Shown piece by piece: positions 25,196 through 28,322 of a DNA stretch of 64,000 nucleotides. Positions within the stretch are counted from its first letter, which is position 1. Each line of letters starts with the position of its first letter. Location of the stretch: contig CBDBFU010000020.1 of the NCBI GenBank assembly GCA_965205025.1, forward strand, positions 128,001 through 192,000, written 5' to 3'. Source of the DNA: Candidatus Poribacteria bacterium. Lineage in GTDB: Bacteria > Poribacteria > WGA-4E > WGA-3G. Made by a program: the position numbers and the translations under genes. A model generated the notes under the pieces. It made no database searches. It was not told the DNA's origin and saw only the letters and a program-made list of their open reading frames with translations.

Positions 25196-25970
25196 ATGGC
25201 ACAATACGATGAAATCGTGAAGCATCTGATGGACAGGTTCGCTGATGACTTCGCCATGTTATCTTTTGCTACATCTGATGTTGAAGTTTTAGAGACACTT
25301 GATACGGAACAACAAACAGTAAAAGTGCATCGTAACGACATGACATTTAAGGTGCGGTGGCATAATGAAACAGTTCTACTTCATATGAAGATTAATTTTT
25401 AAATTCGGTAATTTTGGAGAAATATGCAGTGCGGTTGGGAAACCGCACCTACCAGGTTTGGGGAAATTAGAATTACCGAAATATTTTCTTAATCTTCATT
25501 AGAAGTACAAACCCATGATAGCAGAGATAAACCGATGCCGTTACGTGTTCTTGCTTATGCTGGTGAACTTCTGCTCCGGTATGAACTTCCTGTCTATTCG
25601 GTTGTACTCTATTTAAGTACTAATGCCGGACAAACCGATCCAGGTGGCTATAGTTATGGAAATGATACATTCGGTTTGCAACATAGGTATCAGGTGATTC
25701 GGTTAGCAGATTTAGGAGGAAATGATGCAAGAATCTCCTTTTTACGAAGTTATAATGCAACGTGGCATTGAACAAGGTTCACTTGAAAACTGTATCAGGA
25801 ATATTCTCTCTATTCTCTCAAAACGTTTCCCGGTTGAGGATGTACAACCAATTGAACAAGCATTGGAATCTATTGTAGATCTTGATCGTCTGACAGAATT
25901 ACTTGACACCTCAATTGATATACCGAGTATTAAGGAATTCCTGCAAGAAGTAGAAACATCCGAAGAATAA
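25196..25970 (+). pseudogene. Rpn/YhgA-like (PD-(D/E)XK) nuclease gene disrupted by a MITE and an internal deletion/frameshift
   Basis: AQYDEIVKHL...RNDMTF...LLH[insert]EVQTHDSRDKPMPLRVLAY...VYSVVLYL, then EEMMQESPFYEVIMQRGIEQG C-terminal helix in another frame. Confidence 0.8.
25385..25499. mobile_element. MITE family B inserted in the Rpn gene
   Basis: Perfect TIR ATGAAGATTAA/TTAATCTTCAT; core GTGCGGTTGGGAAACCGCACCTAC; splits the H(I/L)EVQ motif. Confidence 0.88.
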
Positions 25971-26298
25971 AGACCTCCAGTTTCCACGTCCCGATCTTTG
26001 TACCACAAGCTGTTAGTTTGTGGACACACAACTTTCCCACCTCCAAACCCTTATCCGCGAAATCGTTTTGTGTTGTCTGAACCGCAGATTACGCGGATTG
26101 CGCGGATAAGAAAGGTTTTTGTCTGCAAGATTTTCTTTCAATGCTGGAACTTCGGCTCGGTTAGAAACCGAGCCTACCAAGGGGTGGGTACAGAATCTTG
26201 AAGGATCGGGGATCGGAATCCCCTTCCACAGAAGAAATGTAATACCATTTCTATAAATGATTCTCCCATGATTAGGCGGTGTTTATGTCTTGAAATAC

Positions 26299-26657
26299 AT
26301 AGGCGTCAATTTAGTGGTTTTCCCAGGCCGGTAGGTGCGATTTCCTAATCGCACTGGATCCTTCGCGAAAAACTTTATGAACGCAATTGGAACAAACCCG
26401 GTTCGGTTAGGAAACCGAACTATAGGCGTCAATTTAGTTCACCTTTAATAATGGTAGCTTCGGTTTCCTAACCGAAGTGGATTATACACGAAGGCTTTCA
26501 ATCAAAGGTTTGGCACAAATTCGGTGCGGTTGGGAAACCGCACCTACCGGCCTGGGATACAAAATTTTTTTCCTAAATTGACGCTAATGGTTCGGTTAGG
26601 AAACCGAACCTACCGACCTGAAATTTATAGCGTACTTCTCCTTAAATTGACGCTAAT
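26299..26657. mobile_element. MITE family D with a second family D element nested inside (26422-26588); both flanked by ~21-bp direct repeats
   Basis: Ends ATAGGCGTCAATTTAG / TAAATTGACGCTAAT. Outer DR GGTGTTTATGTCTTGAAATAC at 26278-26298 and 26658-26678. Inner DR GGTTCGGTTAGGAAACCGAAC at 26400-26420 and 26589-26609. Confidence 0.85.
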
Positions 26658-26795
26658 GGTGTTTATGTCTTGAAATACCACACAAACTGGAAGTTTGTGC
26701 TACATTAAAGAGATTTTATTAATGACACATTACACGGGTAATAGGAATTCTGATACCTAAAACAATTTAATCAGTGAAATCTGTACAATTACATT

Positions 26796-28322
26796 TTATC
26801 CTTTCTTGGGGTTTGTTTGAGATAGATGGTCCAATATTTTGGATTTTAACTTTCTTTCAATATTCTTCATTTTTGGTTTCCCCGCAAGGTTATCAGTTTC
26901 ATCTGGGTCATCATGTATATTAAAAAGTAGATAGGGTGTTTTATCTCTATTCAATGCTATTTTCCATTCCTGATTCAAGAGCATTATCTCACGTGATATT
27001 TCTGATATAGCATATTCTCTATGTGTTGTCTCGTTGTCAGTTATAACGGGAGATAACGATTTCCCATATTGTTGATGTTGTAATTGTCCTCCAGCATATT
27101 CAACTAAGGTAGGACCGATATCAATCCATTCAACTGGCGTGTCACAAGTACGATTAGTGATATTTCTACCAATTGTATCTGGAGTTCGTACTATAAATGG
27201 AATTCGAACGGCTCCATTAAGAAAATTGCTTTTATATATCAACCCATAATCCCCATTCATTTCACCGTGATCAGAGCAGAAGACAATAACTGTATTTTCG
27301 AGTTCACCTCGTTCCTGTATGGTAGCAAGTATTTCCCCTATCTGATCATCTATTAGAGTAACGTTTCCTGCATAATCAGCACGCATCTTTGCTACATCAC
27401 CCTTATCAAAATCTGGTTTTCTTTTACCACTGAGTTGATCCAATTTACCCCGTGGACGATCTCCAATAGGAGGTCGAGGAATTGGTGGTGGCATTTGGTT
27501 GGGGTCATACATACTTGCATAGGGTTCTGGTGTATCCCACGGTTCATGGGGACCACCGAAACTTACCCAACAGAACCAAGGTTCATCACGTTTATAGGTC
27601 TTAAGATATTTCTTGGCTTGCTGTCCAACGTAAACATCAGCATCGAATTCAAGACCATTAGGGGAAGGACGAACAAGATGAGGTTTTCTAAGAAATCTTT
27701 CTTGATAGTCCTGTTTGTATGCATTCCATATACCTTTTTCTTCCCATATTGCAGTCATGTGTGAAAGAGTATTCATATTTGCTCTGGGTCCACCTATTTC
27801 ATCAACATCATCTAAACCGTAGGCATTCATCAGGTCTTCTTTCTCGCGTAAATCTCCTGAATGTGGATGTAAATGTGTCTTTCCAAACAGACTTGTTCTA
27901 TATCCTGCCTCTCGAACTGCCTGCATCCATGTTGGTGTATTCGGAGACATTTTATGCTTCTGATTATTCCAAACACCCGTATTATGAGGATATAGACCGG
28001 TGGCTAAACTCAGCCGTGCTGGCACACAAATAGGAGAAGTTGTTACACAGTTAGTAAAACGGATACCTTCGCTCGCAATACGATCCAAATTAGGTGTATT
28101 TACCCATCCACCTGAACATCCCATTGCATCCCAACGTTGCTGGTCAGTCATGAGAAGTAGTATATTCGGTTTTGATGGATTATCCGTATTTAGATTTGAG
28201 GGAAAGTTATTGTTGGCAGGTGTACTAACAGAAAGGAGAGATAAAGTACTTGTACTTGCAATTCCTAATTCTCTTAAAAATGTCCTTCGTGTGATTTTGT
28301 TCTTTTCAGATACCATTGGCAA
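26796..28322 (-). CDS. Sulfatase (S1, formylglycine-dependent) with Tat signal peptide
   Basis: TRRTFL twin-arginine motif; PNILLLMTDQQR; CVPAR (CxPxR); SDHGE. Confidence 0.92.
   Translation of the reverse strand: MPMVSEKNKITRRTFLRELGIASTSTLSLLSVSTPANNNFPSNLNTDNPSKPNILLLMTDQQRWDAMGCSGGWVNTPNLDRIASEGIRFTNCVTTSPICVPARLSLATGLYPHNTGVWNNQKHKMSPNTPTWMQAVREAGYRTSLFGKTHLHPHSGDLREKEDLMNAYGLDDVDEIGGPRANMNTLSHMTAIWEEKGIWNAYKQDYQERFLRKPHLVRPSPNGLEFDADVYVGQQAKKYLKTYKRDEPWFCWVSFGGPHEPWDTPEPYASMYDPNQMPPPIPRPPIGDRPRGKLDQLSGKRKPDFDKGDVAKMRADYAGNVTLIDDQIGEILATIQERGELENTVIVFCSDHGEMNGDYGLIYKSNFLNGAVRIPFIVRTPDTIGRNITNRTCDTPVEWIDIGPTLVEYAGGQLQHQQYGKSLSPVITDNETTHREYAISEISREIMLLNQEWKIALNRDKTPYLLFNIHDDPDETDNLAGKPKMKNIERKLKSKILDHLSQTNPKKG

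Follow-up and report, generated by a model that had tools for sequence, protein, structure and literature searches.

The stretch of Candidatus Poribacteria DNA analysed here is 64,000 nt long (contig CBDBFU010000020.1 of assembly GCA_965205025.1, positions 128,001 to 192,000) and is referred to as the window. Around position 26,400 it contains one small mobile element inserted into another. A repeat scan of the window places an inner MITE (a miniature transposable element bounded by inverted repeats) of 167-169 bp within an outer MITE of about 170 bp, each lying between exact 21-nt direct repeats, which agrees with the nesting and the exact flanking repeats described in an earlier note on this DNA. 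Insertion aside, the outer MITE aligns end to end with 5 other copies in the genome. The nest also contains hairpins of a repetitive extragenic palindrome (REP) family, here called REP1, and its parts are as follows.

26278..26298, + strand: left copy of the outer duplication, GGTGTTTATGTCTTGAAATAC, identical to 26658-26678, with 21 nt in the exact repeat and 19-21 bp in the true duplication
26298..26658, + strand: outer MITE ("type A"), with ends CATAGGCGTCAATTTA...TAAATTGACGCTAATG; split by the inner element, without which it measures about 170 bp
26335..26354, + strand: first REP1-type hairpin of the outer MITE, GTGCGATT-TCCT-AATCGCAC, with GGTAG just before it; a member of the REP1 family
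26401..26420, + strand: left copy of the inner 20-bp duplication, formed by the outer MITE's second REP1 hairpin, GTTCGGTT-AGGA-AACCGAAC
26421..26589, + strand: inner MITE ("type B"), 169 bp, with ends TATAGGCGTCAATTTA...TAAATTGACGCTAATG and its own REP1-type hairpins at 26458-26477 and 26524-26543
26590..26609, + strand: right-hand copy of the inner 20-bp duplication; next comes CTACC, the original REP's tag
26658..26678, + strand: right copy of the outer duplication, matching 26278-26298; present once at the empty site of genome G004

Before the boundaries were refined, the outer ends read ATAGGCGTCAATTTA...TAAATTGACGCTAAT at 26299-26657, the inner element at 26422-26588 had the same ends, and the inner exact repeat was the 21-nt GGTTCGGTTAGGAAACCGAAC (26400-26420 = 26589-26609). 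Between the two left ends (26299-26315 and 26422-26438) all 17 nt agree, the two right ends (26567-26591 and 26636-26660) are 88% alike, and the element ends are inverted repeats of each other. The end motif GGCGTCAATTTA, searched by its 12-nt core with at most one mismatch, occurs four times in the window against 0.26 expected, and 0 of 100 shuffles reach four. In the 11 full-length copies of the related insertion sequence (IS) described below, the base outside ATAGG is C at the end downstream of the open reading frame (ORF) and T at the upstream end, whatever the flank; because it is constant across flanks, this base is part of the element. The T at 26421 is missing from uninterrupted copies of the outer MITE, and therefore the inner element runs from 26421 to 26589 and its duplication is 20 bp (26401-26420 = 26590-26609). 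The outer duplication is ambiguous between 19 and 21 bp because the target and the element ends share C/G. Another type-B copy, of 167-169 bp, lies at G000 C12:73270-73436 with a 19-bp duplication. MITEs of this family measure 167-172 bp, are non-coding and multicopy, and have the first 16 nt of each end in common with a 1455-bp IS. The window elements are thus MITEs by all the usual features: short, non-coding, multicopy, with IS-shared terminal inverted repeats and target duplications.

Both flanking repeats are target-site duplications. The outer site is empty in a genome of the same genus (G004, locus L026), where window positions 26242-26298 and 26662-26802 match one continuous stretch; since the two matches overlap there, this is an empty site with a single ...TTTATGTCTTGAAATAC.... 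As for the inner site, the hairpin GTTCGGTTAGGAAACCGAAC is present once in 5/5 other type-A copies of the genome, and the alignment gap against those copies equals the inner element plus one hairpin copy. The target duplications of about 20 bp proposed in the earlier note are therefore real at both levels of the nest.

By pairing all ends across the 5.66-Mb genome, we obtained 36 candidate end pairs with flanking direct repeats, among them a recurrent unit of 1453/1455 bp. This is an autonomous IS, present in 11 copies, all of 1455 bp, with ends YATAGGCGTCAATTTA and one long ORF of 439 aa, whose products are identical in 10 copies and 96% identical in one. The earlier note had proposed looking for an autonomous element with these ends, and its transposase is an IS4-family DDE enzyme. 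The protein matches Pfam DDE_Tnp_1 (2.9e-25) and the NCBIfam IS4 family transposase model (NF033592, IS4_1; 1.5e-62, 211.7 bits against a cut-off of 115), while the NCBIfam IS1634 model gives 45 bits against a cut-off of 100; a PDB sequence search returned only marginal matches, to Tn5 transposase (E ~0.09). In an alignment that includes IS231F, residues D119, D191 and E324 are invariant, with spacings of 71 and 132 residues. The IS4 family, as characterised by De Palmenaer et al. 2008 (PMC2266710), encodes its DDE transposase in one ORF, spaces the acidic residues as D(60-110)D(100-150)E and shows the signature Y-(2)-R-(3)-E-(6)-K. The 439-aa protein agrees with this spacing, and R320, E324 and K331 of the signature are present and invariant. 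The Y position is A/V/Y/L across the clade and Y in IS231F.

The IS ends, CATAGGCGTCAATTTA(A/G), match the IS231-subgroup signature CAT-------AA--TAA (PMC2266710, Table 1): in CATAGGCGTCAATTTAA/G, CAT stands at 1-3, AA at 11-12 and TA(A/G) at 15-17, and one IS end begins with T, not C. They also resemble the IS231F end CATGCCCATCAACTTAAG; the likeness to IS4-group ends suggested in the earlier note is supported. The transposase is 29% identical to an IS231-type protein by tblastn (E ~1e-41) and 28% identical to IS231F by alignment. Many pairs within the IS231 subgroup exceed 50% identity (PMC2266710), and at 28-29% to IS231F/Q the present protein is no close relative of these. In the database, 2654 proteins match the transposase at E <= 1e-30, and its family occurs in 45 of the 176 genomes that make up the phylum sample.

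One further end pair deserves mention. At L003:287-1127 (G000 C28:257373-258720), 1348 bp lie between ends whose 20-bp duplication has 1 mismatch. They hold two overlapping ORFs of 109 and 186 aa, which look like an IS630/Tc1-type transposase split by a frameshift; a MITE of the family may here be carrying a second, unrelated IS.

When the 36 pairs were scored with the one-base-longer ends, allowing at most one mismatch, the duplication was 20 bp in 24, 19 bp in 6 and 18 bp in 1, and none was found in 5; a few of these pairs are alternative pairings within nests. Of the IS itself, 8 copies are bounded by perfect 20-bp duplications, seven of them falling in REP1 and one in a non-REP site; in the remaining 3 of the 11 the two flanks differ. 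The same lengths recur in other genomes, and the control for the method, IS231F, fell within its published range.

IS loci with 51-72% identical transposases, four same-genus genomes: repeat in 21/40, of 19 bp (16) or 20 bp (5)
Outer-MITE-type copies in other genomes: repeat in 11/20, of 18-20 bp
IS loci in the phylum sample: repeat in 18/30, of 17-20 bp
71%-identical IS in G053: repeat in 13/13, perfect 20 bp, 3 of them at non-REP sites
Chlorohelix plasmid copy (Chloroflexota; 33-34% identical): repeat in 1/1, of 20 bp
Herpetosiphon plasmid copy (Chloroflexota; 33-34% identical): repeat in 1/1, of 19-21 bp
IS231F copy, method control: repeat in 1/1, of 12 bp, inside the published 10-12 bp

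For the IS4 family, a duplicated target of roughly one helix turn (7-13 bp) is listed as a hallmark (PMC2266710). The duplication of the present clade is 17-20 bp with a mode of 19-20, about twice that hallmark, and does not correspond to one helix turn. According to the earlier note, short or non-palindromic flanks at other copies would speak against its proposal; this applies by half, since no flank is short, yet many lack palindromy.

The inner target belongs to REP1, of which the genome has 226 copies within 3 substitutions of GTGCGGTT-N4-AACCGCAC. The GTAG tag is found in 85+75+10+8 copies of the main classes, with GGTAG on one side of most. GTAG-tagged REPs are short GC-rich stem-loops in many copies with GTAG at one end (Di Nocera et al. 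2013, PMC3733652), and REP1 is of this kind. Although REP1 makes up only ~0.08% of the genome (226 x 20 bp), 21 of the 31 duplication-flanked pairs lie in REP1-type sequence, and the other 10 lie in non-REP sites with an 18-20 bp duplication. REP1 abuts 59 of 211 element ends, and 114 of its 226 copies lie within 250 nt of an element end. Each MITE bears two REP1 copies, and nests also occur at four or more other loci of the genome. The idea that each insertion creates a REP copy holds for insertions into REP. No excision footprints were seen in the form of abutting REP1-REP1 tandems among 28 close pairs.

What the enzyme reads in its targets was examined at the nest and across the non-REP sites. 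Folding of the inner target reaches -8.2 kcal/mol (z = -3.5; 0/200 shuffles as good), but the outer target folds at chance (-1.2 and -3.1 kcal/mol; 38/200 and 21/200 shuffles as good). The earlier note took both duplicated targets for stem-loops: this is right for the inner one, which is exactly the stem-loop-stem of a REP hairpin, and does not hold for the outer one. Non-REP duplications start with G then T (9/11 each) and end with C (8/11), and their outer three positions are complementary beyond chance (16/33 against 8.7 expected, P = 0.005). Positions 4-9 of the same sites give 26 pairs against 22.8 +/- 3.6 with composition-matched shuffles (P = 0.23). Relatives whose ends are CATAGGTGTCAACTTA usually insert into a larger REP, REP2 (26-27 nt, GTCGGGT-12/13 nt-ACCCGAC), with a duplication GGT...ACC of 19 or 20 bp for a REP2 of 26 or 27 nt, so that the cuts fall 4 bp inside a 7-bp stem. 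REP1 is cut one pair inside its G-C-closed stem; variants whose loop has 3 nt show 19 bp duplicated, and those whose loop has 4 nt show 20 bp. Since the distance from cut to stem foot varies (1 bp in REP1, 4 bp in REP2), the constant features are the motifs at the cut points and their spacing of 17-20 bp.

The repeats could in principle have arisen without insertion, as extended terminal repeats of the elements, as hairpins that a REP-associated tyrosine transposase (RAYT) put in place, or through recombination of one REP with another. Such an origin could appeal to the GTAG tag typical of RAYT-linked REPs, which ~80% of REP1 copies carry, to three Y1 transposase genes in the genome and to the 59 element ends that REP1 adjoins. 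However, the empty site and the uninterrupted MITE hold one repeat copy each, which for the empty site excludes RAYT-made flanks; the flanks vary from copy to copy, include unique sequences, and are always direct and always 18-20 bp; and the IS200-type model gives the Y1 genes 85 bits (cut-off 55), the REP-associated model (REP_Tyr_transpos) 32.7 bits (cut-off 80), and they are adjoined by another repeat, not REP1. In fact, no REP1 lies within 1.5 kb of the three Y1 genes, so that the usual REP/RAYT linkage is not seen. We regard this origin as very improbable, and we give equally little credence to an assembly artefact in which the nest and its repeats stem from mis-joined repeat copies in the 33-contig draft. 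The region is indeed highly repetitive, and public short-read contigs (Logan) break across it, none of them bridging the nest; the "skip" joints in those contigs carry other letters and look like paralogous loci. Misassembly is nevertheless unlikely, because the arithmetic of insertion is exact (170 + 169 + 20 bp) and the nested architecture with 20-bp repeats recurs elsewhere in the genome and in complete single-contig genomes of relatives; moreover, the outer and inner repeats are both exact.

A more serious contender accepts insertion and supposes that the DDE transposase reads an extruded hairpin or cruciform and joins the ends near the stem base, non-hairpin sites being rare off-targets. 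About two thirds of dated insertions lie in a perfect 8-4-8 hairpin whose stem-loop-stem is exactly what is duplicated, the duplication length tracks the loop length, other GTAG-tagged palindromic repeats (GGGTTAGGTTACCTAACCC, GGGCTGGGTTACCCAGCCC) are also targeted, and the inner positions show a mild excess of complementarity with a whole-genome null. Against this, non-REP sites with the same 18-20 bp duplication make up 10/31 here and 3/13 in G053, inner complementarity is at chance once composition is matched, and the outer target of the window folds no better than shuffles. The distance to the stem foot is also inconstant while the duplication length stays constant, and the same MITE type has entered two paralogous sites 7 bp apart (the outer site of the window and C10:48318), each time beside a GTG or CAC half-site. 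Structure reading by the transposase therefore seems unlikely to us. The proposal of the earlier note, an integrase that attacks both feet of a hairpin like Cas1-Cas2, is not supported: the non-REP, palindromy, folding and in-stem REP2 evidence speaks against it, as does the identity of the enzyme, an IS4-family DDE transposase.

We consider it likely that the nest consists of two non-autonomous derivatives of an IS4-family element that cuts its target with a stagger of two helix turns and chooses sites by half-sites, with REP1 as the ideal target. In this mechanism, a two-fold symmetric transpososome would join both 3' ends to the target at phosphates that are offset by roughly two helix turns, and the site would be chosen by short half-sites at the cut points, 5'-G^GT(G/T)...(A/C)AC^C-3', or G^GG...CC^C in 50-58% identical relatives, with 17-20 bp tolerated between them. 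The cut-and-paste chemistry is assumed to be that known for IS231A, Tn5 and Tn10, members of the family whose chemistry PMC2266710 summarises. G-GTGCGGTT-N4-AACCGCAC-C presents both half-sites symmetrically 20 bp apart, which would explain why REP1 is the preferred target and why its whole stem-loop is duplicated; every insertion into a REP adds one REP copy. Since each MITE carries two REPs, MITEs would attract new insertions, and nests would follow. A broader claim, which we hold tentatively and regard as possible rather than probable, is that a widespread IS4 clade (the Poribacteria-type genus, other genera of the phylum and Chloroflexota plasmids) captures targets across two helix turns, a geometry that is not known to have been described for the family, and makes its own landing pads, and that REP1, which has no cognate RAYT here, has spread mainly by whole-REP duplication and carriage on MITEs.

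Several observations weigh against the half-site mechanism. The stagger, the symmetry of the complex and the recognition of half-sites are read from insertion sites only. This transposase has A at the Y position of the family's YREK motif. The inner complementarity of the non-REP sites mildly exceeds the whole-genome null (26 against 17.2, P = 0.014), and it takes a composition-matched null to remove this excess. Nor is the spacing rigid, as it ranges over 17-20 bp and tracks the size of the palindrome, as loop-independent recognition of structure would likewise predict. The IS orientation is biased relative to the REP tag (9/10 in G053, 6/7 here), which two-fold symmetry alone does not explain. 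Finally, no clean repeat was found in 3/11 IS copies, 19/40 same-genus loci, 9/20 MITE copies and 12/30 phylum loci; these cases may reflect decay, inter-copy recombination or nested insertions. Relative to the ORF, the orientation bias of the two lineages is apparently opposite (L145-L154, L176, L177 and L184; G000 IS copies).

The surroundings of the nest are themselves a patchwork, as the intergenic region 25300-26700 is made of repeats that match many sites, both in its own genome and in related ones. A diverged REP1-like hairpin, GCTCGGTT-AGAA-ACCGAGC, followed by CTACC, stands at 26152-26175, some 100 bp upstream of the nest, and further small palindromes (GGGGATCGGAATCCCC) reach to 26235. 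Directly to the right of the outer duplication (26679-26699) stands the hairpin CACAAACTGGAAGTTTGTG, which resembles a 53-copy 8-4-8 family of the genome, CACAAACT-GGAA/TTCC-AGTTTGTG. The paralogous neighbourhood hit by the same MITE type lies at G000 C10:48318-48487, where the duplication is shifted by 7 bp (ATGTCTTGAAATACCGCAC). The flanking gene, 26796-28322 on the - strand, encodes a 508-aa sulfatase (Pfam Sulfatase, 1.1e-51), and the nest is situated ~120 bp past its stop codon. DNA of this gene has matches of 70-75% identity, several per genome across the genus, with one more ~3 kb off in its own genome.

Other repeats were met in the survey. The recurrent flank CATACCGTTGATT was considered as a second IS end with a hairpin target and rejected, since it belongs to a ~35-nt mini-insertion located in the loops of REPs. 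This mini-element, CGGGGAATGC-N6-GCATTCATACCGTTGATTC, sits in REP1 hairpin loops (L069:1052-1112; G000 C7:225706-225908 and C28:102292-102494). It is present in 2/6 aligned copies of one MITE, where it replaces 2-3 loop bases with no flanking duplication evident, and its tail CATACCGTTGATT occurs 284 times in the genome with at most one mismatch. The flank GTGTGTAAAGTTTTTGTCAC was likewise rejected as a favourite target, being the terminal repeat of another element superfamily. That abundant terminal repeat, GGTGTGTAAAGTTTTTGTCAC, has 276 matches with at most one mismatch (e.g., G000 C12:4238-4425 and C10:58171-58427). In 23 copies an IS231-like motif, YATAGGTGTTAATTTA, stands 21 bp inside the terminal repeat, and because the motif lies within it, those ends were not used as independent targets. 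Two superfamily copies inspected by eye have 9-10 bp direct repeats outside the terminal repeat, and the outer 20-mer starts with GTG and ends with CAC, as in the 20-bp targets. The three Y1 genes are identical, IS200-type and located on contig C27, with ~5 tandem units of the hairpin repeat GAGTCCCGTAGGGACGGAATGTCTATAG before them and two after; this layout (L069:1160-1440 and 1990-2080) is REPtron-like and unrelated to REP1.

The length of the target duplication is usually regarded as constant within a family and as a mirror of transpososome geometry. A coherent clade that combines IS231-like ends with a duplication of ~20 bp would thus be a variant supplied by nature, with a necessary difference in active-site spacing or in target bending, making the clade useful for structural study of target capture in Tn5-like enzymes. 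The proposed mechanism would also multiply REPs without a RAYT, as each insertion into a REP yields two intact REPs and MITEs ferry REPs about. It would link two classes of bacterial repeats, explain the nested repeat clusters of these genomes and, if true, amount to a self-reinforcing loop between transposon and REP in sponge-symbiont genomes. In annotation, a tool that looks for duplications of 2-14 bp will either overlook the ends of such elements or put them in the wrong place.

Among known systems, IS231 (IS231A/F of Bacillus thuringiensis) is alike in its single-ORF DDE transposase, its terminal signature, its MITE-like derivatives and a symmetric target with G/C ends that is duplicated whole. 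IS231A reportedly inserts into GGG(N)5CCC, a target that Hallet and colleagues are said to have described in 1994. The IS231 duplication is 10-12 bp (PMC2266710, Table 1; 12 bp measured at IS231F), in contrast to 19-20 bp in this clade, and IS231F has an 18-residue insert that the clade lacks; the Y of YREK is not conserved in the clade. Small non-coding elements whose terminal inverted repeats are common to an IS4-type IS are also known from Nezha and other bacterial MITEs; the reference copy of Nezha, however, has a 10-bp direct repeat (PMC6042816) and its host is cyanobacterial. A link to the cyanobacterial Nezha, ISNpu3 and small dispersed repeats was dropped on account of that 10-bp repeat and of the host genome, which is not cyanobacterial: phycobilisome and reaction-centre genes were not found in it.

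Casposons use Cas1, and both casposons and the IS1202 group have duplications longer than the usual 2-14 bp. Cas1-Cas2 resembles the present system in outcome only, as two staggered attacks duplicate a unit of ~20-40 bp that is often palindromic; the element here encodes one DDE transposase and no Cas1, and its targets need not be palindromic. The DDE transposase is the sole family-matched ORF of the autonomous element, which gives no sign of a casposon, although a genome-wide Cas1 search was not made. IS1634 and IS1549 likewise exceed 2-14 bp, but their duplications range from 8 to 514 bp and vary from copy to copy (PMC2266710), unlike the narrow 17-20 bp of this clade. Among the papers listed in our literature search we found no relevant account of IS duplications of 19, 20 or 21 bp, and Poribacteria are not mentioned in those listed by a further search; ISfinder and TnCentral, which lay outside that search, may record the length.

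A strong preference for REPs is shared with ISRm22 (IS4), IS1397/ISKpn1 (IS3), and ISPpu9, ISPpu10, ISPa11 and IS621 (IS110). ISRm22, itself of the IS4 family, is described as inserting on the symmetry axis of a palindromic consensus with 6-bp repeats (PMC1525189). These REP-targeting ISs split the REP into two fragments and leave direct repeats of 0-6 bp, whereas in the present clade the cuts bracket the REP, so that the whole stem-loop is duplicated and both copies remain intact. REP-targeting ISs, including an IS4-family member, IS231-type ends and symmetric targets are thus already known; what differs here is a narrow duplication of ~20 bp within the IS4 family, and hence a REP that is duplicated intact.

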